A DNA stretch of 37,829 bases from a virus. Of the stretch, positions 6,205-28,220 are shown one piece after another (the first letter of the stretch is position 1; each line of letters begins with the position of its first letter). Location of the stretch: the IMG/VR virus record IMGVR_UViG_3300045988_187455, positions 1-37,829 of that record; one strand, written 5' to 3'. The notes below the pieces were generated by a model. The model was not told where the DNA came from and did no database searches. It saw only the letters and a program-made list of their open reading frames with translations. A program made the position numbers and the translations under genes.

Positions 6205-6560
6205 GAGAGCAAGAAATGGCATTAAATGTAGCAAAGCAAATTTATTTTGATGAGTTTAATTCATTTTACTTAATTGCAGAAACTGAAGAAGATACAAATG
6301 CAATTGGCGTGTATGAAGAAATGTGTACTTGTTATGACATTACAGAGGAATTTATGTATAGATTAAATGAGTGTAATAGATACACAAAAGAAGGATTAAA
6401 CAAAGAAAGAATAATTGCAATATATAAAGCGTTGCGCAAAATTGACGGATATTTTAGTGATAAAAGAATCAAATGCTATATCGAATACACGGACAAAATC
6501 ATTGATGAAATTCTAAAACAAGTCGTAGTGCTTGGAGGTGAGCAAAATAGCAGTAATTAG
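6201..6560 (+). CDS. Hypothetical protein
   Basis: ATGA overlap with rusA stop. Confidence 0.7.
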   Translation: MREQEMALNVAKQIYFDEFNSFYLIAETEEDTNAIGVYEEMCTCYDITEEFMYRLNECNRYTKEGLNKERIIAIYKALRKIDGYFSDKRIKCYIEYTDKIIDEILKQVVVLGGEQNSSN

Positions 6561-7287
6561 AATTATTAAGAACAAAAACTATACAGTGATGAGCAATACA
6601 CATTTAAAAGATAAGCGCTTATCACTAAAAGCAATAGGCTTGTTAAGTATTGTTCTTGGTTTACCGGAAGATTGGCATTATACAGTAAATGGATTAGTTG
6701 GAATTGTAAAAGATGGGAAAGATTCAGTTGAAAGTGCAATTAAGGAATTAAAAAAGAATGGATATTTAAGAGTAGAGAAGATATATCCTAATGAAAATAG
6801 TAATAGGATTCAATATCAATATACATTCTTTGAGAATCCTCAAGAGGTGGATTTTCAACCCCTTGAAAATCAAGGTATTGAAAAGCAAGGTGTTGAAACT
6901 CAAGTACTTGAAAACCCCTACACTTATAAAGATACTAATAAACCAAATACTAATAAATTAAATACTAATACACAAAGTAAACATAAATACGGTGAATATT
7001 CACACGTGTTACTTACAGATAAAGAACACACACACCTATTAGATTTATATGGTAACTCATTAGATGAGCATATAAAGATATTAGATGAGTATATTGAAAC
7101 GAGTGGAAAGAAATACAAGAACCATTCACTAGTGATTCAGAAGTGGGTACATGATGAATGGATGAAAAGAAATAAAGATAAGCCTATCACACTTGATTCA
7201 AAGTTTTATGCAGAGCAGAACACAAAGACGGATAAAGAGGTACAAGATGAATTTAATAGGCTTAGAGCACAACTATTTGGAGCATAG
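6547..7287 (+). CDS. DnaD-like replication organiser / winged-helix replication protein (ATA start)
   Basis: KNKNYTVMSNTHLKDKRLSLKAIGLLSIVLGLPEDWHYTVNGL N-terminal domain; TTG 6532 and GTG 6538 lie on or inside the SD GGAGGTG (6534-6540); ATA 6547 is 6 nt after it. Confidence 0.65.
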   Translation: MAVIRIIKNKNYTVMSNTHLKDKRLSLKAIGLLSIVLGLPEDWHYTVNGLVGIVKDGKDSVESAIKELKKNGYLRVEKIYPNENSNRIQYQYTFFENPQEVDFQPLENQGIEKQGVETQVLENPYTYKDTNKPNTNKLNTNTQSKHKYGEYSHVLLTDKEHTHLLDLYGNSLDEHIKILDEYIETSGKKYKNHSLVIQKWVHDEWMKRNKDKPITLDSKFYAEQNTKTDKEVQDEFNRLRAQLFGA

Positions 7288-11413: not shown

Positions 11414-11827
11414 ATGGAAATTAAAGAAGGAAGATTAGGATTGGTCGAAGGTAAAGCAGTAGCATTTGACTTTGATGGAGTAATTCACAAATATCGTGAA
11501 GGTTGGAAAGATGGAAGCATTTATGATGAAGCTAACAAAGATGTTATCGAGTTGATGTTGCTTCTAAAATTATCAGGTATTCCTATTGTGATTATTTCAA
11601 CACGTGAACCCCAACAAATTAAAGAGTGGTGGGATAAACAAGGATTTGTATTAGAAGCCAAAGTGTTAGGTAAGAAAAAAATGTTTCACAAAACTTGTGA
11701 TTATGTAGGTATCACGAATCGTAAAATTCCTGCTCAATTATATATTGATGATAGAGCTTATAAATATGAAGGTCAGACCGCAAAACAAGTTATTAAAGAC
11801 TTGACTGTTTTCACAGAATTAAATTAG
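11414..11827 (+). CDS. HAD-superfamily phosphatase-like protein
   Basis: DxDGV motif (VAFDFDGVIH), IVIISTR, YIDDRA. Confidence 0.55.
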   Translation: MEIKEGRLGLVEGKAVAFDFDGVIHKYREGWKDGSIYDEANKDVIELMLLLKLSGIPIVIISTREPQQIKEWWDKQGFVLEAKVLGKKKMFHKTCDYVGITNRKIPAQLYIDDRAYKYEGQTAKQVIKDLTVFTELN

Positions 11828-12329: not shown

Positions 12330-12582
12330 AGGTATGTTCAAAAGATTAGGCTATCAAAAAGAAAGAATACTAAACGAACGTTTTATTTCATATAAAAAGC
12401 CTAACGGAACTAGTTTCTGTTATATTCAGTTCGATTTAAAGGAAAAAACTTATAACGCTCATTACTTTGACTCAAAAGGATGTCATCCTCAAATTTTAAG
12501 TGCCAAAGAGATATTAGCTATTCAAAAACAAATTGAAGAATTGGGAGGTGAATTTACTTATGAATGCAAAACAGATGTTTGA
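12313..12582 (+). CDS. MFKELGY-family small protein, copy 2
   Basis: GMFKRLGYQK...LAIQKQIEELGG then a 12-aa extension. Confidence 0.6.
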   Translation: MKITAKGMFKRLGYQKERILNERFISYKKPNGTSFCYIQFDLKEKTYNAHYFDSKGCHPQILSAKEILAIQKQIEELGGEFTYECKTDV

Positions 12583-12787
12583 AAAGCTAGGGTATAAAAA
12601 ATGTGCTTTTGGCGATTGTATTTTCTATGAAAAAGGAAGTATTATGCCTCACATAATTCAATTTAATTTAAAAGATAAAATTTTTTATTCGTATATGGAA
12701 TGTGGAATGGCAAATTCAATAAAAATTTTAACTGCAAATGAGTTAAAAGCGGTTCAACAACAGATGAATGAATTGGGGTGGTCATGA
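12560..12787 (+). CDS. MFKELGY-family small protein, copy 3
   Basis: GGAGGTG + 9 nt + ATG 12560; MNAKQMFEKLGYKK...KAVQQQMNELGWS. Confidence 0.65.
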   Translation: MNAKQMFEKLGYKKCAFGDCIFYEKGSIMPHIIQFNLKDKIFYSYMECGMANSIKILTANELKAVQQQMNELGWS

Positions 12788-13206
12788 TGAGTGCTAAGGA
12801 AATGTTTGAAAAATTAGGATATGAATGTTATGAGTGTGAGAGTACAATTCAATATTTAGCAAACTATGAAATTGTAAGTAAATCAAAAGAGATTACATTT
12901 CTTTTGTTATCGCATTCGTTCTATGCACAACATTATTTCAATCCGTTAAATGTTACTGTTGATGAATTTAAAGCCATTCAACAACAATTAAAGGAATTAG
13001 GATGGTTAGAAGAAGAAACTTGCACCAACAAATCAGAATTTGATTCAATTGATGAATTTGAATGTTCTAATTGTGGAATTGTATTGAGTGAGTATCAACA
13101 AATTGAAATTGATGAAGATGATGGAAAAAGGTTCTTTTGCGATTACAGACCTAAGTATTGTCCAAATTGTGGAAGAAAGATTATAGAGGAAAATGAAGAT
13201 GAATGA
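12784..13206 (+). CDS. MFKELGY-family domain fused to C-terminal zinc ribbon, copy 4
   Basis: MMSAKEMFEKLGYEC...KAIQQQLKELGW then CSNCG...CPNCGRKIIEENEDE. Confidence 0.65.
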   Translation: MMSAKEMFEKLGYECYECESTIQYLANYEIVSKSKEITFLLLSHSFYAQHYFNPLNVTVDEFKAIQQQLKELGWLEEETCTNKSEFDSIDEFECSNCGIVLSEYQQIEIDEDDGKRFFCDYRPKYCPNCGRKIIEENEDE

Positions 13207-13480
13207 CATTAAAATACCTTCAATTGAATTTGTTCGATTAAAAAAAGGAATAACAGAAAACGAATTATATAATTACATGGTAGAAGAAGATGATGATTAT
13301 TGTAATTATTTAGTTTATCTGAGATATAAATATGACTTTGAAAAAGAATGGGATTATTCGGTTCAATGCGTATCAATAGATTGTTGCGAAGAATGTTTAA
13401 ATTGGTTAGATGATTGGTATGAAGGTCAACAAAATGTTGAGTATTTGGCTATTAGTAAATTAGGAGGAGAAAAAGAATGA
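13193..13480 (+). CDS. Hypothetical acidic Cys-containing protein
   Basis: ATG 13193 or 13199; overlaps neighbours. Confidence 0.6.
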   Translation: MKMNDIKIPSIEFVRLKKGITENELYNYMVEEDDDYCNYLVYLRYKYDFEKEWDYSVQCVSIDCCEECLNWLDDWYEGQQNVEYLAISKLGGEKE

Positions 13481-13962
13481 GTATAAATGTAGCAATTATT
13501 TGTGGGCACTTAACTAAAGATGTCGAACTATCAAAAACACAAAATGGAAATAGCGTAGCAAAGTTCACGGTAGCAGTAAATGGATACAATGATACTACAG
13601 ATTTTATTAATTGTGTGGCATGGAACAAGCTCGCAGATATTGTAAATATGTATTGCAAGAAAGGTGATTTAGTTACGGTTGAAGGAAGAATCAGTGTAAG
13701 AAATTATGAGAATCAACAAGGGCAGAAAGTGTATATCACTGAGGTAGTAGCTAGTAACGTGCAATTACCACCTAAAAACGCTTCTAATGGGCAAAATTAC
13801 AATCCTAATGTAAATACATATCAACAACCTAACCAAGCAAATAACAACACTTACGGCGTTAAAAACACATATACGCAACCTAGCTTAACACAACAAATTG
13901 CACAACAAGAATATAATGATGGAAGTGATTTAGATATTGCTTCAGACGATTTACCATTTTAG
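13477..13962 (+). CDS. ssb: Single-stranded DNA-binding protein
   Basis: OB-fold N-terminus (NVAIICGHLTKDVEL..FTVAVN..FINCVAWNKLA), Q/N-rich linker, acidic tail DDLPF. Confidence 0.9.
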   Translation: MSINVAIICGHLTKDVELSKTQNGNSVAKFTVAVNGYNDTTDFINCVAWNKLADIVNMYCKKGDLVTVEGRISVRNYENQQGQKVYITEVVASNVQLPPKNASNGQNYNPNVNTYQQPNQANNNTYGVKNTYTQPSLTQQIAQQEYNDGSDLDIASDDLPF

Positions 13963-13980
13963 GAGGTGGCACTAATAGAA

Positions 13981-14169
13981 ATGAATTATGAAGAAAGGAT
14001 TAAAGAGTTAATTTCTAAGAATGACAGATTAGGAATGGCGAACATTGAGCTTAGTCAGACTTTAAAAGAAAGAAATGCAACAATTCATAATCAAACACAC
14101 GAGATTAATAGGCTAAAAAATAAAGTTGGCGAATTAGAAAATAGATTAATGAGGATGTATACGTCATGA
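13981..14169 (+). CDS. Coiled-coil hypothetical protein
   Basis: ATG 13981; alternatively ATA 13975, which sits 6 nt after GGAGGTG (ambiguous). Confidence 0.55.
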   Translation: MNYEERIKELISKNDRLGMANIELSQTLKERNATIHNQTHEINRLKNKVGELENRLMRMYTS

Positions 14170-14492
14170 GTACATATGAAGAAGTTAAAAAACATTTTCT
14201 ATGCGAATGTCAATCTTATACATACTATGAGCAAAAGATAGCAGAGCTACAAAGGGATGAAGCAATTTATCCATTAAAAGCCGAGCTATTCTTGGCTCAT
14301 GCAGATTATGCAAGAAGAATGAATTATGTAAAAGACAAATTAAGCCAACTTGATGATACGACTCGAGCCATGATTGAGTATAGATATATAAAGGGATTCA
14401 GTGCAGAAAAGACATCTAATATTGTAGGTTATGCACGAGAAGAGATTCCAAGAAAAATAAATAAGAACTTGAAGAAAGTGCTCACAATGTGA
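14166..14492 (+). CDS. Late-gene transcriptional regulator (sigma-70 region 4 / ArpU-RinA-like)
   Basis: C-terminal LDDTTRAMIEYRYIKGFSAEKTSNIVGYAREEIPRKINKNLKK HTH; position just upstream of the packaging genes. Confidence 0.6.
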   Translation: MSTYEEVKKHFLCECQSYTYYEQKIAELQRDEAIYPLKAELFLAHADYARRMNYVKDKLSQLDDTTRAMIEYRYIKGFSAEKTSNIVGYAREEIPRKINKNLKKVLTM

Positions 14493-14501
14493 GCATTTTT
14501 T
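14480..14501 (+). terminator. Rho-independent terminator ending the early/middle operon
   Basis: GCTCAC-AAT-GTGAGC hairpin followed by ATTTTTT. Confidence 0.6.
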
Positions 14502-14503
14502 CA

Positions 14504-14512
14504 TGTAATAAT
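14504..14512 (+). promoter_or_regulatory. Extended -10 promoter element (TGtAATAAT) for the tRNA-like gene
   Basis: TGnAATAAT ends 6 nt before position 14519, the predicted mature 5' end. Confidence 0.4.
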
Positions 14513-14518
14513 TGTTTT

Positions 14519-14594
14519 AGCAGGATAGAGCAGTAGTAGCTCACTAGTCTTATTAGCTAGAGGTCGAACGGTGCAATTCCTTCTCCTGCAACCA
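14519..14594 (+). tRNA. tRNA-like gene, anticodon UAU (reads AUA), initiator-like features, encoded CCA
   Basis: Manual cloverleaf: AGCAGGA/TCCTGCA acceptor with A1xA72 mismatch, GAGC-AGTAGTA-GCTC D arm, CTAGT-CTTATTA-GCTAG anticodon arm, AGGTC variable loop, GAA(C)GG-TGCAATT-CCTTC T arm with one bulge, A73, CCA. Confidence 0.55.
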
Positions 14595-14676
14595 TGATTA
14601 CAAAGCCTATCAGTAAGTCCTTCCCAAATTAGATATTAAATACCAACAATGGCATACAATTAGGCTTTGATATATT

Positions 14677-14701
14677 ACCGAGCATTTGTCTCGGTTCTTT
14701 T
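14677..14701 (+). terminator. Rho-independent terminator after the tRNA-like unit
   Basis: ACCGAG-CATTTGT-CTCGGT followed by TCTTTT. Confidence 0.6.
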
Positions 14702-14728
14702 AATAATAAGGAGGAGAATGAGGAATAA

Positions 14729-15232
14729 ATGGAGATTATTAAATTAAATATCAATGACATTACACCTTATGAAAAGAATGCAAAGATTCATACTGAAGCA
14801 CAAATTGAGCAAATTAAGAAATCTATTCAAGAATTCGGAATGAATGACCCAATCGCCGTATGGGGTAAAAACAATACCATAGTTGAAGGGCATGGGCGTT
14901 TAGAAGCCTTAAAGCAATTAGGCTATACAGAAGTTGACTGTATCAGACTAGACCATTTGACAGATGAAGAAAGAAAAGCCTATACGCTTGCACATAACAA
15001 AATCAACATGAATACAGGATTCGACATTGATTTGTTAGATGAAGAATTAGACAGTATCGAAGATATTGATATGTCTGATTTTGGATTTACCGAGCAAGAT
15101 ATTGATTGGGATAATGTAGAAGATTTAAGTGATGATTCTTATGAAGAGCCTCAACATGAAATGTGGAAATGCCCTCAGTGTGGACACGTAGATAGAAAAG
15201 AACACTTTAAAGGAGTTCGTGACAATGAATAA
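14729..15232 (+). CDS. ParB N-terminal (ParB/Srx nuclease-like) domain protein with C-terminal zinc ribbon
   Basis: ITPYEKNAKIHTEAQIEQIKKSIQEFGMNDPIAVW..IVEGHGRLEALKQLG; acidic linker; CPQCGH. Confidence 0.75.
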   Translation: MEIIKLNINDITPYEKNAKIHTEAQIEQIKKSIQEFGMNDPIAVWGKNNTIVEGHGRLEALKQLGYTEVDCIRLDHLTDEERKAYTLAHNKINMNTGFDIDLLDEELDSIEDIDMSDFGFTEQDIDWDNVEDLSDDSYEEPQHEMWKCPQCGHVDRKEHFKGVRDNE

Positions 15233-15244
15233 AACTACACCTAA

Positions 15245-16006
15245 TTGAAAATATTTCTAAGCGCATTAGAGGTGCAACGAGGTAAGAAATCATTATGTAG
15301 AATCTTAGTCGAGCAAGGCATTCAAATGAAATATAACCTTATGTCTTATTACTACCTAAGAAAGAATTTAAATGACGCATATTTCATAAAAGAGAACAGT
15401 CAATTAGTAATTATAGACAGTGGAGCACATAGTTTCCAAAAGGGTACAAAAGTTGATTGGGTAGAATATACCAAGCAATACGCAGAATTTATCAAAGAAT
15501 TTGATGAGGACAAGGTTGTAGGATATTTTGAAATGGATGTAGACAACATCTTAGGTTATGAAAAGGTATTAGAGTTAAGAAAAATATTAGAATCTGTATC
15601 AGATAAGATTATTCCTGTATGGCATAAGAATAGAGGAATACAAGACTTCAAAGATATGTGTAAGAAATATCAAGGTAAGGTTGTAGCAATTACAGGATTC
15701 AAGAATGAAGATATTAAAGATGAACAATACATTATGTTTTTGAAATATGCAAAGAAATATAATTGCAAGGTTCATTGCCTTGGTATGACAAGAAAAAAGA
15801 TATTAGATAAAGTTCCATTTGATTATTGTGATTCTAGTTCATGGGTACAACAATCAGTTTATGGGCGTATCAATGGGGTGGGCAAAGTATCAAGAGAAAT
15901 GTCAAGGACAAATAGAGAACAAGTAATGATAGAGAATTATAAGCAATTTATGCAAATGCAAGAAAAATATGAACAAAAATGGAGGAACGTGAATAAACAG
16001 AAATAA
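15245..16006 (+). CDS. TGT-superfamily DpdA-like 7-deazaguanine DNA transglycosylase (tentative)
   Basis: IIDSGAHSF, KVHCLGMT, FDYCDSSSW motifs recalled as DpdA/TGT-like; TTG start directly after a stop with no SD; see start anomaly finding. Confidence 0.5.
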   Translation: MKIFLSALEVQRGKKSLCRILVEQGIQMKYNLMSYYYLRKNLNDAYFIKENSQLVIIDSGAHSFQKGTKVDWVEYTKQYAEFIKEFDEDKVVGYFEMDVDNILGYEKVLELRKILESVSDKIIPVWHKNRGIQDFKDMCKKYQGKVVAITGFKNEDIKDEQYIMFLKYAKKYNCKVHCLGMTRKKILDKVPFDYCDSSSWVQQSVYGRINGVGKVSREMSRTNREQVMIENYKQFMQMQEKYEQKWRNVNKQK

Positions 16007-16448
16007 GACGATAGCTTTTAATGCAGTAATGTGTGCATTGTATGTTGTAGCAACGACAATTAACCCAATCGGATATGGAGTATTTCAATTTAGAGTTAGT
16101 GAATTAATGACAGTGTTTCCTGTTCATTTCAAAAAAGCACGTATCGGATTGCTTTTAGGAGTAGCAATAGCAAATGCAATGAGTCCGCTAGGCTTTATAG
16201 ATGTATTTTGTGGAACATTAACGGCAGGACTATTGTATTACCTAATTGATAGACTACCGGTACACAATTACATCAAATACATTCTATATTCATTAGAAGT
16301 AGGATTAATTATCGGTTGGGAATTACAGTTGGTATATCATATGCCATTTGTATTAACATTCTTTACTACATTTATTCCGGAAATGATTCTATGTATTATC
16401 GGTGATTTATTAGCAAAGAAATTAAAGCATTATGTAAGTATTGATTAG
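15993..16448 (+). CDS. queT: QueT-family queuosine-precursor transporter (ATA start)
   Basis: IAFNAVMCALYVVATT..GVFQFRVSELMTVFP plus further TM helices; first ATG (16029) would truncate TM1; GGAGGA + 6 nt + ATA 15993. Confidence 0.65.
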   Translation: MNRNKTIAFNAVMCALYVVATTINPIGYGVFQFRVSELMTVFPVHFKKARIGLLLGVAIANAMSPLGFIDVFCGTLTAGLLYYLIDRLPVHNYIKYILYSLEVGLIIGWELQLVYHMPFVLTFFTTFIPEMILCIIGDLLAKKLKHYVSID

Positions 16449-16461
16449 AGGTGATAAACAT

Positions 16462-16833
16462 ATGGCTATGCCAAAGAAGAACATTAATCAAAAACAATTT
16501 GAACAACTATGTCAAATTCAATGTACAAAAGATGAAATCTGCTCTGTGTTAGATGTATCCGACAAAACATTAGACAGATGGTGCAAAGAAACATATGAAA
16601 CGTCATTCTCCGAAATATTCAGACAAAAAAGGCAAGGAGGGTGTGCAAGCCTTAGAGCAAAGCAGTGGAAACTAGCTTCTAAGAGTCCTGCTATGGCTAT
16701 TTTCTTAGGTAAACAGTTCTTGGGTCAAACAGACAAAGTAGAAACGCACTTTGACGCTTCAGAAGTAAATGCAATTAATAAAGCTATGATTACAGATGTA
16801 GCAAAAGAAAGAAGAATTGAAGATTTTGAATAA
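16462..16833 (+). CDS. terS: Terminase small subunit
   Basis: AGAGGTGA + 7 nt + ATG 16462; HTH (CTKDEICSVLDVSDKTLDRWCKE) and LRAKQWKLA..MAIFLGKQFLGQTD. Confidence 0.75.
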   Translation: MAMPKKNINQKQFEQLCQIQCTKDEICSVLDVSDKTLDRWCKETYETSFSEIFRQKRQGGCASLRAKQWKLASKSPAMAIFLGKQFLGQTDKVETHFDASEVNAINKAMITDVAKERRIEDFE

Positions 16834-18151
16834 GCCTGCGCCTTTCAATCAAAAACAATTAACTTATCTTAAAAGGACATTTGATTCATGGCTTAATGTT
16901 TTAGAGGGCGGTAAGCGTGGAGGGAAAAACGTACTCAACACATACGCTTTCTGCATTGCATTAGAAACACATCCGGATAAGTTTCATTTAATAGCAGGAA
17001 CAGATACATCATCTGCACGTGTTAATATTGGAGATTGCAACGGATACGGCTTACAAAACTACTTTGCGAATAGATTCAAAGTAGGGAAGTATGAAGGCAA
17101 AGATTGTTATTACATCAATACAAAGGTTGGAGAAAAGGTTGTATTCTTTGCCGGTGGTGCTAAGAAAGGCTCAGAGAATGCAATACATGGTTATTCATAT
17201 GGAATGGCATATGTAACAGAAGCAAACCTTTGTTGCATTGAATTTCTACAAGAAGTAATGGATAGAACGATAGCATCAAGCGATAGAAAGATATTTCATG
17301 ATTTAAACCCCAAAGGCAAGAATCATTGGTATTACACAGATTTCTTGAAATATCATGAGGAGCAACAGAATAAAGATTCTACATATGGTTATAACTATGG
17401 GCATACCACCTTAGTTGACAATTATTCTTTAAGTGATGAGCAGATAAGAACGGTCTTGAAATCATACGATAAGAATAGCGTTTATTACAAAAGAGATATA
17501 AAAGGGCAAAGGGAAGAAGCCGAAGGACTTGTATTCCCTTATTTTGCTAATGATTGCAAACCTTACCTATTTAAATATCAGAGTCTAAAAGAAAAGATGA
17601 AGGAAGAAGGGAAAAGGTTTAGTCATTTAATTATTGGAGTTGACTTTGGAGACAATGGTTCGAAATATTCATGGCACTTAACAGGGTTTACAAATGATTG
17701 GGACTATATGTGGGCACTAGATGAGGGAGATATGGAGAAGTCAAACTCAATTGACGCAACAAAGTTTTGCAAAGCGTTTGTAAGATTTTATAAGCGTTGT
17801 ATTGAATGCTATGGATATGTAGAATGGATATTTCCGGACAGTGCTTCTAACACGCTAATAAACACGCTTAGAGCTTATTTCTACGCCGAAGGATTAGACG
17901 GAAGTATAATTGCACCAGTTAAGAAGAATGAGCTAACAGACCGTCCTATAACGGTTGATAGCTTACTTGTAACAGGTAGATTAAAAATAGAAGAACATTG
18001 TAAGAACTTAATAAACGCATTGAGCGAATTGGTATGGGATGAAAAAAAAGACATTCCAAAAGATGAGAACGTAAACAATATCAATGATGATTGGGATTCG
18101 TTCTGCTATACATTTATCACACATAGCAAATATATAGATTTAAGGAGGTAA
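16817..18151 (+). CDS. terL: Terminase large subunit (PBSX-like)
   Basis: 444 aa; Walker A-like GGKRGGKN, nuclease-domain acidic motifs; TTG start. Confidence 0.9.
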   Translation: MKILNKPAPFNQKQLTYLKRTFDSWLNVLEGGKRGGKNVLNTYAFCIALETHPDKFHLIAGTDTSSARVNIGDCNGYGLQNYFANRFKVGKYEGKDCYYINTKVGEKVVFFAGGAKKGSENAIHGYSYGMAYVTEANLCCIEFLQEVMDRTIASSDRKIFHDLNPKGKNHWYYTDFLKYHEEQQNKDSTYGYNYGHTTLVDNYSLSDEQIRTVLKSYDKNSVYYKRDIKGQREEAEGLVFPYFANDCKPYLFKYQSLKEKMKEEGKRFSHLIIGVDFGDNGSKYSWHLTGFTNDWDYMWALDEGDMEKSNSIDATKFCKAFVRFYKRCIECYGYVEWIFPDSASNTLINTLRAYFYAEGLDGSIIAPVKKNELTDRPITVDSLLVTGRLKIEEHCKNLINALSELVWDEKKDIPKDENVNNINDDWDSFCYTFITHSKYIDLRR

Positions 18152-18154
18152 GAA

Positions 18155-19558
18155 ATAGAAACATCTAACACACGTAGACCGTGGTTTCAGAATTACCTAA
18201 ACGACAGAGGGTATTATGTAGATACAAATGCAATTCAAATTATTGAATTGTGCAACAAGTGGTATACAAATACCGAGACAGAATTTCATACGGCATACAC
18301 CTTAAACAATGAGGAATACACGCTAGATAAAACAGACTTTGCAAAGCGTTTATGCGAGGATGACGCAAACCTTATTGAAATCCTAGATATAAACGCTACA
18401 GAGGATAGCGTTACAAATGACATTATTTCAGATATTCTAACAAAGAATAGGTTCGATGTAATGTATAGGAAACAAGTTGAGCAAATGTCTGCAAATGGTA
18501 CAGTAGGAGCTTATGTGACGGTATCAAATGCCGAGATTTACGAAGATGGTACATTCAGTGGAGGAGAAATCAGAATCAACTATTGTGATTCCATGAATAT
18601 CCTTCCACTAACTGTTATTAATGATGAAATTGTGGAAGTTGCTTTCGTTGGAGTAAATTATGAGAAATTAAAAAAAGTATATGTGATGGTCATGTTCTTA
18701 AAAGGACAAAATGAAAGATACATTGCAGAAACACATTACTTTAAAGAGACAGGCGAAGAAATAAAAGACCGTGCTCAGATTGTTCAATTAGATGTGGTTA
18801 AGCCGTTTGCAATTATGAGAAATGCAAAGGTAAACAATTTACAAATGCAAGGCTACGGCTTGCCAAAGATTTGGAGTGCAATTGCTCCACTAAAAACAAT
18901 TGATTTGACGATGACAATGTGGAATAGAGATTTATTAAAATCGGATAAGATTGTTCTTGTCAATGAAGCATTAATGCAGAAAGACGAGAATGGAAAGATT
19001 AAAATGAATCCACAAATGAAAAAGATATTCGTTCAATTAGGTAGGGACAAGCTACCGGAAGAAAAAGCTTTATGGCAAGAATACAATCCAACAGTTCGAA
19101 CGGCAGAAGTTGTTCAATCACTAGAAACGGCGTTAAGTATCTTATCAATGATGTTTGGATTCGGTACAAAGAAATACACGTTTGAAAGTGGAAGAATCGT
19201 GACGGCTACAGAATATATTGGTGAGAACCAAGACGCTATGAAGGAAGTAAATTCACAACGTAAAGAATCTACTGCATATATTCAAGATATTATTCAAGCA
19301 ATAGCATACTTCTATGAATTAACACAAGGCAGAAAGCTTAATATCAATTCATTAGACATTGCTATTGACTATGATGATACATATATCGAGGATAAACAAA
19401 GCACGGCACAAGCATTAAGGAATGACGCACTTACATTTGATATTCCAAGATTAAAGATTATGTATTTTATGAAGCAATATGGCTTTACAGAAGAAGAAGC
19501 AACGGAATTGTTGAATGAAGAAATTCAAGATGATGGAGAGGAGGATGAAGAAGAATAG
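18155..19558 (+). CDS. Portal protein (ATA start)
   Basis: About 467 aa following terL with an acidic C-terminus; frame open from 18152; AAGGAGG + 6 nt + ATA 18155; first canonical start TTG 18248 has no SD. Confidence 0.8.
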   Translation: METSNTRRPWFQNYLNDRGYYVDTNAIQIIELCNKWYTNTETEFHTAYTLNNEEYTLDKTDFAKRLCEDDANLIEILDINATEDSVTNDIISDILTKNRFDVMYRKQVEQMSANGTVGAYVTVSNAEIYEDGTFSGGEIRINYCDSMNILPLTVINDEIVEVAFVGVNYEKLKKVYVMVMFLKGQNERYIAETHYFKETGEEIKDRAQIVQLDVVKPFAIMRNAKVNNLQMQGYGLPKIWSAIAPLKTIDLTMTMWNRDLLKSDKIVLVNEALMQKDENGKIKMNPQMKKIFVQLGRDKLPEEKALWQEYNPTVRTAEVVQSLETALSILSMMFGFGTKKYTFESGRIVTATEYIGENQDAMKEVNSQRKESTAYIQDIIQAIAYFYELTQGRKLNINSLDIAIDYDDTYIEDKQSTAQALRNDALTFDIPRLKIMYFMKQYGFTEEEATELLNEEIQDDGEEDEEE

Positions 19559-20364
19559 CAACTACATATTTTCCATTCGTCTCAAGAAATGGTGATAGAT
19601 TAGTATTATATGACGCTTTCAGAAGATTGTTCTCAAGCTACTTTACAAATGGTGTGTTCGTAGATGATTCTAGTTCAGACCATTTAAGAGTTGAGAAAGC
19701 TCAAGGCTTAACCTTAACAGTTAAAGCAGGACGAGCAAATATTAATGGAGCGTTCTATTGGCAGAAAGATGACGAAACCATCACACTAGAAAAGAATAGC
19801 GCTACTAAAAGCTACAATATTATTCTTAGATTGAATGATAATGACGCATACAGAAACATTACCTTAGTAGTAAGTGATATTAATGATGGAATCACAAGAA
19901 GTGATTCTATTTACGATTTAGTATTAGCTACGGTTACAGTAACAGGAAACGCAAGTGAAGTTAAAGGTTCAGATATTACTGATACAAGATTAGATTCTAC
20001 ACGTTGCGGAGCAGTTACAAGCGCTATTAAAAGCGTACAATCGTTGGATTTATTTACTCAAGTTACTGAGCTATTCAAAGAAATTAAGGCTCAGAATGAA
20101 TCTGAAATGAATGCAAATAGAACAGAGTTTAATGATTGGTTTGAAACTGTAAAAGATACGTTAGACGCAAATACGGCAGGAAAACTTTCTAACAGAATTT
20201 CAAACATTGAAAAGATGATTATGGAGAACCATTTCACTACGATTCTATTAACAGAAGATGGAACACTAGTAGATGAGAATGGTCATGAGATTCTAGCAGA
20301 TTGGGCGTATGAAGTTGATGAAGGTGAAGTAGGTAAAGATTGGACTTACAAGGTGAAATCATGA
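19555..20364 (+). CDS. Fibre/baseplate-like structural protein (ATA start)
   Basis: Frame open 24 codons upstream of TTG 19627 with protein-like sequence (ATTYFPFVSRNGDRLVLYDAFRR); GGAGGA + 9 nt + ATA overlapping portal stop (ATAG). Confidence 0.65.
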   Translation: MATTYFPFVSRNGDRLVLYDAFRRLFSSYFTNGVFVDDSSSDHLRVEKAQGLTLTVKAGRANINGAFYWQKDDETITLEKNSATKSYNIILRLNDNDAYRNITLVVSDINDGITRSDSIYDLVLATVTVTGNASEVKGSDITDTRLDSTRCGAVTSAIKSVQSLDLFTQVTELFKEIKAQNESEMNANRTEFNDWFETVKDTLDANTAGKLSNRISNIEKMIMENHFTTILLTEDGTLVDENGHEILADWAYEVDEGEVGKDWTYKVKS

Positions 20365-20660
20365 GACAAGGAACAACACCAACAATTCAAATCACAATAA
20401 ACGATATTGATTTAAATGAAATGCAGAATATCTATGTGGTATTTGAACAGAACGGATATATCTTGAAAAAAGAATCAAGTGATTTAGACATTGAAGGAAA
20501 TGTTATTTCAGTGTTGTTAAGTCAAGAAGAAACGCTCAATTTCAAAGAGGGTACTTGTAACATTCAATTAAGAATGATTACAAAAGGAGGAGTTGCTATT
20601 GCTTCTCCTATCAAGACAACAAAGGTATATAGAGTATTGAATAAGGAAGTGATTACATGA
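20361..20660 (+). CDS. Structural-module hypothetical protein
   Basis: AAGGTGA SD, ATG 20361 overlapping upstream stop (ATGA). Confidence 0.65.
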   Translation: MRQGTTPTIQITINDIDLNEMQNIYVVFEQNGYILKKESSDLDIEGNVISVLLSQEETLNFKEGTCNIQLRMITKGGVAIASPIKTTKVYRVLNKEVIT

Positions 20661-20986
20661 TTCTAATGCAAGATATTCAAATGAATATACAAGATGAATC
20701 AGACAAGCTTCAAATTGAAATCAATGAAGATAAAGAAACATTAACTTTAGGATTAGATGAGAAGTTTGTTGAAGGTACAAGTGATTACAACAAGCTAAAG
20801 AACAAACCTAAGTTAAATGGTAATGAAATCATTGGAGAGGTTGAAGAAATAGACCCAACAGTTCCAACGTGGGCAAAAGCAGAAACAAGACCGGTATATA
20901 CTCCGGAAGATGTTGGAGCTATGGCAGAAGGTTCTGTAACATCTGTATCAACAACCGAACTAGATGAATTATGGAATAGTCTATAG
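20657..20986 (+). CDS. Structural-module hypothetical protein
   Basis: ATGA overlap; C-terminal STTELDELW motif shared with the next gene. Confidence 0.65.
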   Translation: MILMQDIQMNIQDESDKLQIEINEDKETLTLGLDEKFVEGTSDYNKLKNKPKLNGNEIIGEVEEIDPTVPTWAKAETRPVYTPEDVGAMAEGSVTSVSTTELDELWNSL

Positions 20987-20998
20987 GAGGAAAAAAGA

Positions 20999-21607
20999 AT
21001 AGCTATTGAATATTTAGATAAGAGTGGATTGACACTCTTAATCAGTAAAATTAAAACGGCGTTAGGTGGTAAAGTTGATGCCGTAAGTGGTAAAGGCTTA
21101 TCAACAAATGACTACACAAGCGCAGAAAAGCAAAAGTTAAGTGGTATCGCAAGTGGCGCTCAAGTGAACGTGATTGAGTCTGTAAAGGTTAACGGTACAA
21201 AATTAACGCCAAGCTCAAAAGCCGTAGATGTTACAGTGCCAACAAAAACATCACAATTAACAAATGACAGTGGATATCAGTCGGCAACGAGCGTTGAGTC
21301 AATTATCACGGCTAAAGGGTATCAAACGCAAGCACAAGTACAATCGTTGATTAATTCGGCAGTAGGTAATATTACATCTATTAGATATGAAAAGGTAACG
21401 AGCTTACCTGCTACAGGTTCAAATGGTGTGATTTATTTGGTTGCACATTCACACGGAACTCAAGATATATATGATGAGTATATTTGGCTTTCAGAGACAA
21501 AGACATATGAAAAGATTGGTAATACAGACATTGATTTATCGGCGTATGTTAAGAGTTCAGAATTAACTGCGATTACTACAAATGATTTAAATACAATGTG
21601 GGGTTAG
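20999..21607 (+). CDS. Fibre protein with GKGLSTNDYT repeat-type motif (ATA start)
   Basis: GGAGG + 8 nt + ATA 20999; N-terminus AIEYLDKSGLTLLISKIK..GKGLSTNDYTSAEKQKLSGI typical of phage fibres; only ATA/ATT precede TTG 21029. Confidence 0.65.
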   Translation: MAIEYLDKSGLTLLISKIKTALGGKVDAVSGKGLSTNDYTSAEKQKLSGIASGAQVNVIESVKVNGTKLTPSSKAVDVTVPTKTSQLTNDSGYQSATSVESIITAKGYQTQAQVQSLINSAVGNITSIRYEKVTSLPATGSNGVIYLVAHSHGTQDIYDEYIWLSETKTYEKIGNTDIDLSAYVKSSELTAITTNDLNTMWG

Positions 21608-21859: not shown

Positions 21860-22771
21860 ATAGCAGGGAAACAAGTAACAGAATTAGACGCATTGCCTAG
21901 CTTTACAGATACAAGCTTATTGCCTGTGCATAATGGCACAGGATTGAAAAAAGGATTATTATCGCAACTAGCTAATTATTTAGGAGCAAAATTCAGTAAT
22001 CCGAATTTATTGATTAATCCGGATTTCAAAATCAATCAAAGAGGAAAAAGTACTTACAGTACTACCGGAGCAGGATGTACGGTTGACAGATGGGTTGGAA
22101 CAAACGTAAAGACGGTAGTCAATTCAGATGGTACTGTATCTGTATCTTCTTTAAGTGGCACAGGATATTATACGCAACACGAAGAGAATATCTCATATGG
22201 AAAGCATACATACTCAATTTATGTTCAAGCAATTACCGGAACAGTAAATGCTTTTTATAAAAGCAAGGATTCACGAGACGTTGGATTAGGAACATTAAAG
22301 CAGGGATTGAATGTCTTTACATCAGTTGATGATGGATTTAAAAGCTTTTACTTAAGCGTCGCAGGAGGTTCATCTGTAACTTTAAAATATGCAAAGGTAG
22401 AGCAAGGAACAGTAGCAACTACATTTATTGCACCTAACATGGCAGAAGAATTAATTAAATGTTACAGGTTCTTTCAGATTCTGAGCATTGACATGTTAAA
22501 AATATCATTTGATGGGAGTCAAGGCTTTATTCCATTTACGCCGAAAGTTAAGATGAGAAGTACGCCAACATTAGGTTATTGGACAAACAAACTTTATATG
22601 CGTAAATCCTATACAGATATGACACTCGAAGAATTGGCATTTAATAGAGCGTGGGCTTCTAGTGACAACGTAATCGGTGTAGCGTTTAATGTTTCTTATA
22701 ATAGAATATCTATGTTAACGCCAATCAATAGTCATTTAGACAGATTCGAATTGGACGCAGAAATTTATTAG
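21860..22771 (+). CDS. Tail fibre / receptor-binding-like protein (ATA start)
   Basis: AAGGAGGA + 8 nt + ATA 21860; N-terminus AGKQVTELDALPSFTDTSLLPV is a typical fibre N-terminus. Confidence 0.65.
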   Translation: MAGKQVTELDALPSFTDTSLLPVHNGTGLKKGLLSQLANYLGAKFSNPNLLINPDFKINQRGKSTYSTTGAGCTVDRWVGTNVKTVVNSDGTVSVSSLSGTGYYTQHEENISYGKHTYSIYVQAITGTVNAFYKSKDSRDVGLGTLKQGLNVFTSVDDGFKSFYLSVAGGSSVTLKYAKVEQGTVATTFIAPNMAEELIKCYRFFQILSIDMLKISFDGSQGFIPFTPKVKMRSTPTLGYWTNKLYMRKSYTDMTLEELAFNRAWASSDNVIGVAFNVSYNRISMLTPINSHLDRFELDAEIY

Positions 22772-25181: not shown

Positions 25182-26051
25182 ATACCAAATGAAATTGCAT
25201 TAGCTAAAACGTATGTCTCAAATTTGGATGAGGTATATAAGTTAGCTTCAGTTACAGGTGATTTAAATGCAGACGCTACAATGGTACGAGCAGGAGCAAA
25301 CGCAAAAGAAATCATCTATCCACAAATTTCTGTTAAAGGTTTAGGAAACTACGATAGAAACAGTGGTTATACAGGTAACTCAGTTAAGTTAGAATGGAAA
25401 ACTGCTACATTCGACTATGATAGAGGAACTAAAATCTCAGTTGATACACAAGATAACGCAGAATCAATGAATATTGCATTCGGTATGGCAGGAGCAGAAT
25501 TAATGCGTACAAAGGTAGCACCGGAAGCGGACGCTTACACATTCGCTAAAATTGCAGGTACAACAGGAATCACAAAGGTTTCAGAAGATTATACAGGTGC
25601 AGAAGAGTTCTTGAGCGCATTGTTAACGGCTATCACTAAAATGGATGAGGATGAAGTTCCTAGCGAACAACGTATCTTGTATTCAACACCTACATTATTA
25701 AATAGCGTTAAAGCATTAGATACATACAAATCACGTGAAGCTTTACAAGGATTCGCAAAAGTTGTTCCTGTACCTGCTAGTCGCTTCTATACAAAAATCA
25801 AATTGTTGAGTGGAAAAGATACAGAGTTAGAGGGCGGATACGAAAAGGCAGAAGATGGACACGTAATCAACTTCTTGATTGTTCATAAACCTGCCGTTAT
25901 GAAATGGGATAAACACACCGTTTCAAATGTAATTCCTGCAAGCAATAACATTGAATCAGATTCAGATGTATTGAAATATCGTAAGTATGGAATTGTTGAT
26001 GTATACCAAAATAAGGTAGCAGGTATTTACTTATCTGCTAGTGCTAAGTAA
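25182..26051 (+). CDS. Major capsid protein (ATA start)
   Basis: AAGGAGGA + 9 nt + ATA 25182 directly after in-frame TAA-TTA; PNEIALAKTYVSNLDEVYKLAS N-terminus lies upstream of TTG 25224. Confidence 0.8.
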   Translation: MPNEIALAKTYVSNLDEVYKLASVTGDLNADATMVRAGANAKEIIYPQISVKGLGNYDRNSGYTGNSVKLEWKTATFDYDRGTKISVDTQDNAESMNIAFGMAGAELMRTKVAPEADAYTFAKIAGTTGITKVSEDYTGAEEFLSALLTAITKMDEDEVPSEQRILYSTPTLLNSVKALDTYKSREALQGFAKVVPVPASRFYTKIKLLSGKDTELEGGYEKAEDGHVINFLIVHKPAVMKWDKHTVSNVIPASNNIESDSDVLKYRKYGIVDVYQNKVAGIYLSASAK

Positions 26052-27298: not shown

Positions 27299-27714
27299 CA
27301 GTATCAAAAGCATTGATTCAATGGCTATATGGCTATGGAAATATACAGATAGATGAACGTATTGAAACGGATGTTTTAGCGCAACAAGCTATCTCTTATG
27401 CGTTGTATAAAGAACCTAACGCAATTGTAAATACATACATTGACGGCTCTCAAATGCGTACTGAATACTACACGTTTCTAGCACGTAGGAACACACAAAT
27501 TGAAGCCGAAAGGCAAGATAACAATGTTTTTCTAGAAGAATTAGAAAATTGGATTGATGAAAAGAATTTAAGCGGAGAATTGCCACAACTAGACGGAAAC
27601 AGATATTGCGAGGATGTTTCCGTTTCAAGTGGTTTATATCTATATACAAATGAGGATAGTCAAGCAGTATATGCCTTGACAATTCAAATTAAATACAGAA
27701 AGGAGCTTAATTAA
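27295..27714 (+). CDS. Tail completion protein
   Basis: ATGA overlap; synteny. Confidence 0.55.
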   Translation: MTVSKALIQWLYGYGNIQIDERIETDVLAQQAISYALYKEPNAIVNTYIDGSQMRTEYYTFLARRNTQIEAERQDNNVFLEELENWIDEKNLSGELPQLDGNRYCEDVSVSSGLYLYTNEDSQAVYALTIQIKYRKELN

Positions 27715-28220
27715 TAACAACTACAGGGACTGAAGTAAGTACAGGACAAACAGTCAAGAAGTATATGATTGGATTGTTCTTGCAAATGGGAGAAAGTTAT
27801 AAGCGAATTAAGAAATCTACAACTTTAGATATTTCATTTAACAGTGAAACTGAAACGTATGATTTTATCGCAGATAAGAACCCAACAGAATCATTAAAGA
27901 GTTATTCACCTCAAATCTCACAGGATTTGACTATGATTAAAGGCGAAGATGACTTTGAATACATTTACGAACAAATGATGAAATCCGTACCAAACAACGA
28001 AGAAGTAAATACAAAAGCTTTACTTGTATTTATGTTTGACGGAGACAAAACTAAAGGCTATAAAGCGTGGGAAGTTGACGCTAAATTAATCTTCGACACA
28101 TTGAGTGGCGTTGATTCAAAAATCAACTTCAATATTAACTTTGCAAGTGACATTCGTGTCGGTACTGCAAAGGTAGCAGATGGAGCAGTGACATTCACAG
28201 AAGGTACATCAGAAGTATAA
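27714..28220 (+). CDS. Major tail protein (probable ATA start)
   Basis: AAAGGAG + 8 nt + ATA 27714 (TAATA overlap with upstream stop); ATG 27765 has no SD. Confidence 0.7.
   Translation: MTTTGTEVSTGQTVKKYMIGLFLQMGESYKRIKKSTTLDISFNSETETYDFIADKNPTESLKSYSPQISQDLTMIKGEDDFEYIYEQMMKSVPNNEEVNTKALLVFMFDGDKTKGYKAWEVDAKLIFDTLSGVDSKINFNINFASDIRVGTAKVADGAVTFTEGTSEV

Follow-up and report, generated by a model that had tools for sequence, protein, structure and literature searches.

A 76-nt gene found between the early and late operons of a prophage that is common in the human gut likely encodes an AUA-decoding initiator tRNA, in which the anticodon CAU has been replaced by UAU. The gene lies at positions 14519-14594 (+) of the window, i.e., the whole stretch of viral DNA analysed (37,829 nt), and this function is inferred, as no experimental evidence is available. 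A preliminary description had proposed an initiator-like tRNA able to decode AUA start codons, and this proposal is supported here by invariant initiator hallmarks, by ATA start codons in ~14 phage genes, and by the tracking of the tRNA with these codons across related phages.

The phage genome is AT-rich (33% GC) and carries ~64 genes, 34 of them late. Its host is inferred, from sequence alone and only at the family level, to belong to the Erysipelotrichaceae, on the basis of MetA homologues. Among cultured phages, a near-identity search with the tRNA region yielded no match, and a distant search with the same region returned a generic tRNA-Met match only. Scanning of genome contigs with the 19-nt D arm gave 2 chance matches and no host genome, and the 17-nt anticodon arm matched metagenomes 91 times, 83 of these being chance matches in coding DNA and 8 real tRNAs. 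The relatives sampled are related phages, among which the UAU tRNA was seen in ~5 lineages and as 11 distinct variants; consequently, its co-occurrence with ATA starts rests on ~5 tRNA lineages and not on dozens of independent events.

The cloverleaf formed by the 76 nt at 14519-14594 represents a genuine tRNA under constraint, and all the elements listed in the preliminary description are present: an acceptor stem of six pairs (GCAGGA/TCCTGC) with A1 unpaired opposite A72; U8; the D arm GAGC-AGTAGTA-GCTC; the anticodon arm CTAGT-CTTATTA-GCTAG, with TAT at 14551-14553, U37, and a stem closed by U31.G39; the variable loop AGGTC; the T arm GAA(C)GG-TGCAATT-CCTTC, in which a single nucleotide is bulged; and A73 followed by an encoded CCA. 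The minimum-free-energy fold is also a cloverleaf, with an energy not exceptional relative to shuffled sequences (z = -0.8), and what supports the fold is the covariance-model score together with covariation, not folding energy. The Rfam model RF00005 was matched over its full length (positions 1-71 of 71) by 14519-14591, with a score of 48 bits against a gathering score of 29 (E = 2e-7); the alignment placed a single inserted base in the T stem, and no other RNA family was matched in the window. Across the 11 distinct variants, 99.1% of cells were paired and 8 pairs were changed on both sides, the compensatory changes falling in three helices across lineages; the observed covariation score was reached by 0 of 500 shuffles. 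Further, the loop and identity elements of the tRNA are invariant while its flanks diverge between lineages.

ARAGORN called no tRNA in the window, and named tRNA-Ile(tat) both for locus L031, which differs by a single base (C31 for U31), and for variant B, which differs in the anticodon stem only; since these near-identical variants are called, the miss in the window is a threshold effect. The preliminary description had offered Infernal and ARAGORN as checks, and had considered that rejection of the fold by tRNA models, without compensatory changes among homologues, would refute it. RF00005 accepts the fold, ARAGORN calls the sister variants only, and with 48 bits and 8 covarying pairs the refuting outcome was not fulfilled. 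A canonical elbow is lacking in the window tRNA, which has a D loop without GG (AGUAGUA), the T loop UGCAAUU, G55 and a bulged T stem; sister variants C-F combine the same anticodon loop with canonical GG and TPsiC elements. A 9-nt loop, with U31.G39 open, or a shifted anticodon was also considered and ruled out, given that 31:39 remains pairable (U.G; C:G in L031) and U33 sits in its standard place.

The body of this tRNA is of the initiator type. Opposite A72, which is invariant, position 1 carries A, C or G, and a standard 1:72 pair is therefore absent from all 11 variants (A.A in the window and, in other lineages, C.A or G.A, with the canonical C1.A72 in variant D from L053 and L089), and G2:C71, C3:G70 and A73 are invariant in 11/11. 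The 1:72 mismatch together with 2:71 and 3:70 constitutes the formylase determinant (PMC5389676), and the mismatch keeps the tRNA out of the A site (PMC11231383). The pair A11:U24, also invariant in 11/11 variants, is shared with the Escherichia coli initiator gene metZ, whereas metU and ileX carry C11:G24, elongators having a pyrimidine at 11 and a purine at 24. G30:C40 is retained in all variants while neighbouring pairs covary. The anticodon loop CUUAUUA, which includes UAU and U37, does not vary in any of the 11; among the 66 distinct tRNAs of the fetched loci, U37 was found in 11, all of them initiator-like, the other 55 carrying a purine.

Sequence identity points in the same direction. 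A BLAST comparison of variant D with E. coli genomes matched only a tRNA-Met present in 4 genomes and not the core initiator genes, which were missed because no 11-nt word is shared; for this reason, direct alignments were made with the annotated E. coli metZ, metU and ileX genes. The UAU variants are 65-77% identical to metZ and 47-58% to the elongators metU and ileX; with 65% identity to metZ, the window tRNA is closer to it than to elongator Met and Ile2 (50-53%). A lysidine-type tRNA-Ile2 was rejected as an identity for this gene, its anticodon being TAT and not CAU and its identity to ileX 53%. The likeness to tRNAfMet stated in the preliminary description (GAGC/GCUC D stem, AGGUC variable loop, GCAACCA end) held against metZ.

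Two initiator features are not met: the CAU anticodon, replaced by UAU in all 11 variants, and the run of three G:C pairs at 29:41, 30:40 and 31:39, which reads A:U, G:C, U.G in the window and G:C, G:C, U.G in variants B-D. The preliminary description had counted the single G:C pair against an initiator role, and this objection failed: of the three pairs in the E. coli initiator, G30:C40 alone is essential, and natural au/GC/gu initiators exist (PMC5389676). Its other objections failed as well, the missing D-loop GG, G55 and the bulged T stem being peculiar to the window sub-variant, and U37 being invariant and correlated with an A at -1 of the ATA starts. The U.G at 31:39 of the window is pyrimidine:purine, unlike the natural purine:pyrimidine variants.

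ATA starts are used by ~14 of the ~64 phage genes (about a quarter), 11 of them late, the start sites being inferred from the sequence. The late genes concerned include those for the portal, head proteins, major capsid, tape measure, distal tail protein (Dit), holin, endolysin and a QueT transporter. These starts lie 5-11 nt past strong Shine-Dalgarno sequences and just after an in-frame stop, and yield N-termini that fit homologue profiles, PHROG profiles aligning from residues 2-4 of the ATA-started proteins (with the exception of Dit, residue 30). When start-like triplets were defined as lying 5-11 nt past a strong Shine-Dalgarno sequence, at most 6 codons from an in-frame stop and opening a reading frame of at least 60 codons, the window contained 12 ATA, 8 ATG and 3 GTG, the background frequency of ATA being 2.7%. 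In addition, ATA and ATG alternate at the identical codon among close relatives. Many ATA starts adjoin or overlap an upstream stop codon, and translational coupling could relax start-codon requirements.

Upstream of the late region, an early gene (6547-7287, +) has GGAGGTG 6 nt before its ATA, which is conserved in 5/5 relatives, and a small coiled-coil gene (13975-14169, +) has a probable ATA start 6 nt after AGGAGGTG, with ATA in 37/37 relatives; an ATG two codons downstream is a possible alternative start of the latter. Beyond the tRNA, the QueT-family transporter gene (15993-16448, +; Pfam QueT) has GGAGG 7 nt before an ATA that abuts an in-frame stop. The portal gene (18155-19558, +) starts with ATA 6 nt after AGGAGG and one codon past a stop, and its N-terminus aligns with full-length homologues whose starts are within a few residues of the ATA. 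It is followed by a head protein gene (19555-20364, +; PHROG 1220 from residue 3; ATA in 16/16 relatives), and by a structural gene (20999-21607, +) whose residues 4-200 align with 4-195 of a 197-residue PHROG profile and whose exact start codon is ATA in 5 relatives and ATG in 2. A fibre-like gene (21860-22771, +) also starts with ATA, nine relatives having ATG at the exact codon. In the major head protein gene (25182-26051, +), AGGAGG precedes ATA by 9 nt and residues 3-288 match 3-294 of the 297 positions of PHROG 422; ATA is also used in L089, L194 and L197.

A tail-region gene (27714-28220, +) was assigned an ATA start from its Shine-Dalgarno context and a profile search. For the tape measure gene (29182-31761, +), the first ATG, GTG or TTG occurs 140 codons downstream of the ATA, and for the Dit gene (31758-32630, +; PHROG 33 from residue 30) the first canonical start is 68 codons downstream. 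In the lysis region, the holin gene (33658-34158, +; PHROG 199) has a probable ATA start 5 nt after TAAGGAGTGA, and the endolysin (CHAP) gene (36770-37528, +; PHROG 291 from residue 2) starts with ATA 9 nt after AAAGGAGGA, a TTG further upstream preceding the Shine-Dalgarno sequence itself.

The UAU tRNA and the ATA starts co-occur across relatives. The portal start is ATA in 38/38 close relatives, and the tRNA is present in 31/31 of those with the region covered; L089 and L193-199 likewise combine the UAU tRNA with an ATA portal start, whereas distant relatives without the UAU tRNA have ATG at the portal start in 35/35 cases. Furthermore, the homologous start codon of the tape measure gene follows the anticodon of the phage tRNA, being ATA with UAU (L193-199), ATG with CAU (L213) and AGG with CCU (L223). 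The last is the single convincing AGG start, and the gene that follows it starts with ATG; in the short loci examined, no general enrichment of AGG or GCG starts was found with the CCU or CGC initiator-like tRNAs of relatives. An A at -1 precedes 26/29 ATA starts and 19/44 ATG starts (Fisher p = 6e-5), which would fit a fourth base pair with U37, an inference only. The overlap of ATA starts with upstream stop codons also contributes to the A at -1.

The tRNA gene appears to be expressed on its own. The upstream early operon, whose last gene is ArpU/sigma-r4-like (14166-14492), ends at a terminator-like site formed by a hairpin and a T run (14479-14503; TGCTCACAATGTGAGCA followed by TTTTTT), and hairpins are found at the same position in other lineages. 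Downstream, a terminator scan identified an intrinsic terminator-like hairpin with a T run (14677-14704, +), with equivalent hairpins 3' of the tRNA in L089, L194 and L197. These flanking hairpins indicate that the tRNA forms a separate small transcription unit. A consensus scan found no sigma-70 promoter for it. By sequence reading, and as an inference only, a possible extended -10 element, TGTAATAAT (14504-14512, +), ends 7 nt before A1; it went unreported by the consensus scan because it has no -35 element, and it is not conserved in other lineages.

In the mechanism we propose, the start codons of ~14 phage genes would have switched from ATG to ATA in parallel with the anticodon change, and the tRNA would be made from a small transcription unit of its own, located between the early and the late operon. 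The amino acid it carries is inferred: aminoacylation by IleRS is the most plausible, given the UAU anticodon and A73, and MetRS is less likely because C34 is missing. It may be noted that U37 precludes t6A37, a positive element for E. coli IleRS, and that U34 removes the main MetRS determinant. Formylation by the formyltransferase is proposed because every known acceptor-stem determinant is present and invariant. The tRNA would then enter the 30S P site directly, with the unpaired 1:72 keeping EF-Tu away and G30:C40 licensing P-site passage, and would pair with AUA starts 5-11 nt past strong Shine-Dalgarno sequences, where a fourth pair could form between U37 and the A preceding the ATA (AAUA with UAUU). 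For charging, formylation and P-site use the support is only indirect, consisting of the cognate ATA starts with their Shine-Dalgarno sequences and of the co-occurrence of these starts with the tRNA. The host initiator acts on AUA with only 0.1-1% of AUG efficiency, while initiators with mutated anticodons start at matching codons (PMC11744186). As the host tRNA(CAU) reads AUA so poorly, efficient synthesis from the ATA genes would depend on the phage tRNA. The regulatory purpose remains an inference: such a private initiation channel could plausibly prevent expression of structural and lysis genes during lysogeny and activate it in lytic growth, with any gating being partial, since only ~1/3 of late genes use ATA.

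The main rival, already raised in the preliminary description, is an elongator tRNA-Ile(UAU) that serves internal AUA codons independently of the host lysidine tRNA-Ile2; the ATA starts would then be a peculiarity without connection to it, recognised weakly by the host initiator or with the help of translational coupling. In its favour are the UAU anticodon, the label tRNA-Ile(tat) given by ARAGORN to sister variants, the AT-rich genome (33% GC) with 18.9 AUA per 1000 codons in early genes, the common carriage of codon-supply tRNAs by phages (PMC10264068), and the fact that some ATA starts abut upstream stop codons. We nevertheless consider it very unlikely. No lineage has a paired 1:72, position 1 itself varying among three bases, and an unpaired 1:72 bars a tRNA from the A site (PMC11231383); the body as a whole, A11:U24 included, is that of an initiator and not of an Ile tRNA; and U37 stands where all 55 other distinct tRNAs of the fetched loci have a purine. 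No demand for AUA sense decoding above that of the host was seen, late genes using 11.5 AUA per 1000 codons against 10.2 in the host flank (a figure from 9 flank genes only), and this unelevated internal use in late genes leaves no codon-supply motive. Finally, the perfect tracking of the tRNA with ATA versus ATG starts is left unexplained, and the major capsid and portal need a high expression that is improbable at 0.1-1% efficiency (PMC11744186).

A second rival, which we also judge very improbable, is that the gene provides a nuclease-resistant substitute initiator, e.g., against a VapC-type toxin that cleaves tRNAfMet: changes at 31, 34, 37 and 39 would evade an anticodon-loop nuclease, and ATA starts would have drifted in secondarily, as U34 reads both AUA and AUG. 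Four conserved differences from the canonical initiator do cluster in or around the anticodon loop, it has been proposed that phage tRNAs evade tRNases through altered anticodon loops, and initiator tRNA is a cleavage target of VapC (PMC10264068); unusual loops are also seen in the initiator-like tRNA(CAU) copies of related phages. Conversely, no host defence nuclease was identified, the selection of ATA at highly expressed genes and the A at -1 remain unexplained, and with C34 changed, Met charging is expected to be altered or lost, a heavy cost if escape were the only benefit. This scenario is compatible with the main explanation and may represent its evolutionary origin rather than a true alternative. 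Lastly, a pseudogene, i.e., a decaying tRNA or attachment-site remnant without function, is all but excluded: the rejection of the window copy by ARAGORN, its bulged T stem, D loop without GG and G55, and its unexceptional folding energy are outweighed by compensatory changes in three helices that already contradict it, by invariant loop and identity elements amid diverging flanks, by the existence of canonical sister variants, by the presence of the tRNA in every relative with the region covered, and by a mid-genome location that is remote from the integrase end and flanked by terminators of its own.

Taking the gene as an AUA-decoding initiator, we compared it with known systems. With bacterial tRNAfMet (E. 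coli metZ/W/V/Y) it shares the unpaired 1:72 with A72, G2:C71, C3:G70, A11:U24, AGGUC, A73 and the GCAACCA end, as well as G30:C40 in all variants, the TCGG/CCGA-type anticodon stem being kept in variants B-D. All phage variants differ from it in having UAU instead of CAU, U37 instead of A and an invariant A:U at 4:69, and in being viral genes; moreover, 31:39 is U.G and not G:C, 29:41 is A:U in the window variant, and the window sub-variant alone has non-canonical D and T loops and a bulged T stem. Phage-borne initiator-type tRNAs with CAU are known in Streptococcus phage Javan59 (unannotated) and Stenotrophomonas phage vB_Sm_QDWS359 (annotated as tRNA-fMet), and further ones occur in L200-L234 and in the ~190-kb phages L030-L035. 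These are likewise virus-borne with an initiator-type body, the Javan59 gene occupying the same position between early genes and terS, and the L030 tRNA having the exact D arm of the window together with a UGCAA T loop; they differ in keeping CAU and a purine at 37, and the homologous genes start with ATG.

Elongator tRNA-Ile(UAU) reads AUA in bacteria without TilS, Mycoplasma mobile among others, and acts in the A site; its 1:72 is paired, its D stem is of the elongator type and its position 37 is a purine (t6A). The phage tRNA shares the UAU but has an unpaired 1:72, A11:U24 and U37. The crAss-like and Lak gut phages recode stop codons with phage suppressor tRNAs. There, as proposed here, some genes, mostly late ones, can be translated only in the presence of a phage tRNA, but the codon reassigned is a stop codon within genes, decoded during elongation, whereas here it would be the start codon, read by an initiator. 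In animal mitochondria, AUA is a genuine start read by the single tRNA-Met through a modified C34 in CAU (PMC11775629), without a dedicated UAU initiator. Engineered initiators with mutated anticodons (amber, i-tRNA-AAC) follow the common principle that a new anticodon opens an orthogonal channel at the matching start codon (PMC11744186; bioRxiv 10.1101/2021.05.25.445580); they are laboratory constructs without U37 or U31.G39, whereas the phage tRNA is natural and co-evolved with ~14 genes.

To our knowledge, no natural initiator tRNA has an anticodon other than CAU, and the literature searched yielded no precedent for a non-AUG initiator tRNA of natural phage or viral origin. Non-AUG initiation is thought to rely on mispairing with the CAU initiator tRNA. 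The phage likely possesses a natural, virus-owned start-codon system of a kind previously known only from engineered tRNAs. If true, this would be a new genetic-code variation, in which the start signal is reassigned rather than a sense or stop codon, and a new viral means to control or privilege its own translation; as a natural orthogonal initiation pair (U37, U31.G39, A at -1), it would also provide a model for synthetic biologists. There are consequences for annotation as well: tRNA annotators label the gene tRNA-Ile, and in this very common group of human-gut phages, key genes are shortened or overlooked by gene callers that accept ATG, GTG and TTG alone. For instance, the representative of the portal cluster, with 1406 member sequences, has 436 aa instead of 467, and the tape measure loses 140 residues under canonical-start gene calling. 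As Erysipelotrichaceae hosts and the prophage are abundant in public samples, the initiation question is directly testable.

A bolder reading can be put forward as one joint claim, which we think clearly more apt to fail than to hold: these gut phages would use a private start code in which a four-base A+AUA signal is read by U34-A35-U36-U37, proteins would begin with a residue other than methionine, probably formyl-isoleucine, the system would act as a master switch for virion and lysis genes, and the same scaffold would have been re-targeted more than once among related phages (UAU, CCU and CGC, each with U37). An example of such re-targeting may be seen in L223, where the tape measure gene starts with AGG and the phage carries the CCU version of the tRNA.

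The window corresponds to a temperate siphovirus-type phage of 37.8 kb and 33% GC, with an integrase gene at 1-1125 and an ArpU/sigma-region-4-like gene (14166-14492) as the last of the early genes, after which come the genes for terminase, portal, head, tail and lysis. A scan for triplets located 5-11 nt past a strong Shine-Dalgarno (SD) sequence, no more than 6 codons from an in-frame stop and opening an ORF of 60 codons or more, retrieved ATA most often (12), followed by ATG (8) and GTG (3), with ATA representing just 2.7% of all triplets in the window; on the minus strand there were none. Manual curation yielded 24 ATG, 3 ATA, 2 GTG and 1 TTG starts among the early genes, and 19 ATG, 11 ATA, 2 GTG and 2 TTG among the late genes. 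The ATA-started late genes are those of QueT (15993), portal (18155), a head protein (19555), the major head protein (25182), tape measure (29182), Dit (31758), holin (33658) and endolysin (36770), as well as those at 20999, 21860 and 27714; the early ones are located at 6547, 13975 and, possibly, 5836.

In tape measure and Dit, the first canonical start lies 140 and 68 codons downstream of the ATA, respectively. Several observations support the view that ATA genuinely serves as a start codon in the phage group, which we consider very likely. Alignments to PHROG profiles begin at residues 2-4 of the ATA-started proteins (residues 3-288 of the major head protein match profile positions 3-294 of 297), and the N-termini of full-length portal homologues fall only a few residues from the ATA. 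Furthermore, the identical codon is either ATA or ATG among close relatives, as seen at 20999 (5 ATA, 2 ATG) and at 21860, which is ATG in 9 of them. Since gene callers disallow ATA, portal, tape measure and other proteins are N-terminally truncated in gene calls; public calls for the group are systematically short, with 436 aa versus 467 for portal (window 18248; the representative of its protein cluster, P0031, with 1406 members, has 436 aa) and 719 aa versus 859 for tape measure (29602).

A 76-nt tRNA-like gene with anticodon UAU is found at 14519-14594 (+), and all the structural elements listed for it in the preliminary description were present, so that claim held in full. The Rfam tRNA model, the only RNA family to hit the window, matched it end to end with a score of 48 bits against a threshold of 29 (E = 2e-7) and a single inserted base in the T stem, and its minimum-free-energy fold is the cloverleaf, of ordinary energy (z = -0.8). 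ARAGORN reported no tRNA in the window, a miss that we regard as marginal because near-identical sister copies were called tRNA-Ile(tat), namely that of the related locus L031 (a single base, C31 versus U31) and variant B (differing only in the anticodon stem). In each lineage the gene is flanked by two terminator-like hairpins at the early/late boundary, indicating a separate small unit between both gene sets.

Relatives were collected by scanning viral and metagenome contigs for patterns and by looking up neighbouring proteins, and the element was recovered from many human-gut assemblies, totalling 11 distinct sequences from about five lineages: variants A and B, of the window type; C, from the same phage species, in which the D loop has the canonical GG, the T loop reads TTCAAxT and the bulge is absent; D (L053/L089); E (L193-195, L199); and F (L196-198). 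In these 11 variants, 99.1% of the cells fit the cloverleaf as paired, and changes on both sides were found at 8 pairs (3 in the acceptor stem, 3 in the anticodon stem and 2 in the T stem); neither any of 500 shuffles nor any slid control came near the observed pairing. Thus, the gene is very likely real and under selection. Within one phage species, two elbow types were observed: a D loop AGUGGUG with a T loop UUCAAUU, and AGUAGUA with UGCAAUU and a bulged T stem (window 14533-14539 and 14573-14579 versus variant C, L047, L052); the D-loop G-to-A and U55-to-G changes occur jointly, possibly as tertiary-pair covariation.

The invariant positions of the 11 variants are those defining bacterial initiators. 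Opposite A72, position 1 is occupied by A, C or G, never by a pairable base (variant D has the classical C1.A72), and G2:C71, C3:G70, A11:U24, G30:C40 and A73 do not vary. By direct alignment, the variants are 65-77% identical to the annotated E. coli initiator metZ and 47-58% to elongator tRNA-Met (metU) and tRNA-Ile2 (ileX); with the initiator they have in common the GAGCAG...TAGCTC D arm, the AGGTCG variable region and the GCAACCA end, whereas the elongators carry a TAGCTCAG...GAGC D arm and a GCCACCA end. The formyltransferase determinant comprises the 1:72 mismatch plus pairs 2:71 and 3:70; in E. coli the middle pair G30:C40 is the only essential one among the three G:C pairs, and natural au/GC/gu initiators are known (PMC5389676). 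As summarised in PMC11231383, the 1:72 mismatch also keeps such a tRNA out of the A site and shields it from peptidyl-tRNA hydrolase. Four departures from a normal initiator are identical in 11/11 variants: U34, which gives the UAU anticodon, U37, and U31.G39 replacing G31:C39. Among 66 distinct tRNAs from all fetched loci, U37 was found only in the UAU tRNAs and three related initiator-like tRNAs. Because the molecule lacks two features required for membership in tRNAfMet (a CAU anticodon and all three G:C pairs), we describe it as initiator-derived and initiator-like, rather than as tRNAfMet.

The tRNA and the ATA starts co-occur. Portal starts with ATA in 38/38 close relatives; for 31 of these the available locus extends over the region, and each of the 31 carries the tRNA. 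The same holds at larger distances, with portal, capsid and other genes ATA-started in L089 (about 65% nucleotide identity, variant D; the capsid gene being the major one) and in L193-199 (portal identity 57-58%, variants E/F), the latter including tape measure. In contrast, 35/35 more distant relatives (portal identity 47-49%) lack the UAU tRNA and have an SD-ATG at the homologous portal start. Likewise, tape measure starts with ATA in phages with the UAU tRNA, with ATG in L213 (CAU tRNA) and with AGG in L223 (CCU initiator-like tRNA). The UAU tRNA is likely the initiator reading these ATA codons, as the preliminary description had inferred; comparative evidence supports this function, which remains inferred, without experimental data.

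Under this proposal, the phage would supply its own AUA-reading initiator tRNA. The host initiator uses AUA at ~0.1-1% of AUG efficiency, and initiators with a mutated anticodon start at the matching codon (PMC11744186); therefore, strong synthesis of portal, capsid, tail, holin and lysin would need the phage tRNA. When starts from the window, L089, L194 and L197 were pooled, A was present at -1 in 26/29 ATA starts versus 19/44 ATG starts (T in 16/44; Fisher p = 6e-5), with the caveats that some of these A bases are part of an adjoining stop codon and that homologous genes of related phages are non-independent observations. As U34-A35-U36-U37 is complementary to AAUA, the weak all-A:U codon-anticodon helix in the P site may gain stability from the invariant U37, although we regard this inferred fourth codon-anticodon pair as falling short of probable. 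All formylation determinants are kept in the tRNA, and the UAU anticodon and A73 point to IleRS; t6A37 is excluded by U37, and the main MetRS determinant is lost with U34. The charged amino acid is undetermined, with isoleucine as initiating residue being as plausible as not. Regarding purpose, the system may act as a translational gate keeping virion and lysis genes off in the lysogen, or as a private initiation channel under host shut-off or defence; both are inferred, and late-gene gating is put forward only tentatively.

Among other explanations, escape from tRNases aimed at initiator tRNA (PMC10264068) was not excluded and could be how the system originated in evolution. An elongator tRNA-Ile(UAU) supplying AUA decoding, the alternative raised in the preliminary description, is unlikely: internal AUA occurs at 11.5 per 1000 codons in late genes versus 10.2 in the nine host genes sampled beside an integrated copy, so extra elongation capacity is not evidently needed, and the unpaired 1:72, A11:U24 and U37 also disfavour it. 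A pseudogene or att remnant was ruled out by the cloverleaf pairing, the both-sided changes and the controls.

Phage-borne initiator-type tRNAs with CAU anticodon exist. The Streptococcus anginosus prophage Javan59 carries an unannotated one (C1.A72, A11:U24) in the same genomic position as that of the window, between early genes and terS (L239 6001-6073, MK448817.1 20081-20153), and Stenotrophomonas phage vB_Sm_QDWS359 has its own, annotated tRNA-fMet. Most of the distant relatives (L200-L234), which are temperate, harbour a CAU copy within the head-gene module, ~3.7 kb past the portal start (e.g., L202 11700-11773); it has G1.A72, three G:C pairs and odd loops (UUCAUGC, for instance), and its CCA is not encoded. 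Phages of ~190 kb (L030 1177-1361; also L032-L035) have a tRNA(CAU) with a D arm identical to that of the window and a UGCAA T loop, within a large tRNA cluster, directly adjoined by a 96-nt, possibly intron-containing tRNA-Ile(tat). Phage L223 (IMGVR_UViG_3300021399_000523; also L238; 49% portal identity, 56% GC) encodes its CCU initiator-like tRNA at 6392-6465, with U37 and unpaired C1.U72; its AGG tape measure start (11476-11484), at the site of the window ATA and the L213 ATG, has A at -1 and AGGAGG 9 nt upstream, and the next gene (Dit) starts with ATG. Two further initiator-like tRNAs, with CCU and CGC anticodons and U37, were found in the same portal family (L225 11719-11790; L227 8449-8523); no matching AGG or GCG starts were seen in the short stretches searched. 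Engineered anticodon-mutant initiators share the operating principle proposed for the phage tRNA. In the literature searched (7.7 million PMC papers and bioRxiv), no initiator occurring in nature, whether in viruses or in cells, was found to have an anticodon other than CAU. A functional analogue is offered by crAss-like and Lak phages, in which stop codons are recoded by means of suppressor tRNAs.

The ArpU-like neighbour protein is encoded on human-gut contigs as long as ~100 kb, and was recovered from 242 blocks in the assembly collection. In the integrated copy L056, bacterial genes follow the prophage (12400-20786), including cysteine synthase, MetA, O-acetylhomoserine sulfhydrylase and an Rrf2 regulator, among others. 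Since proteins from Erysipelotrichia, Faecalitalea cylindroides and relatives share 78-80% identity with this MetA, and an Amedibacillus prophage portal is 55% identical to that of the window, the host is an Erysipelotrichaceae gut bacterium, resolved to family only, with the species undetermined. Finally, the interval separating the tRNA from terS contains three genes (14729-16448), encoding a ParB_N-domain protein (14729-15232), a 253-aa protein (15245-16006) whose homologues in relatives have a precomputed PF20691 (TAGT) match, and the ATA-started QueT-family queuosine-precursor transporter (15993-16448), which together resemble a DNA-modification or 7-deazaguanine-precursor module.
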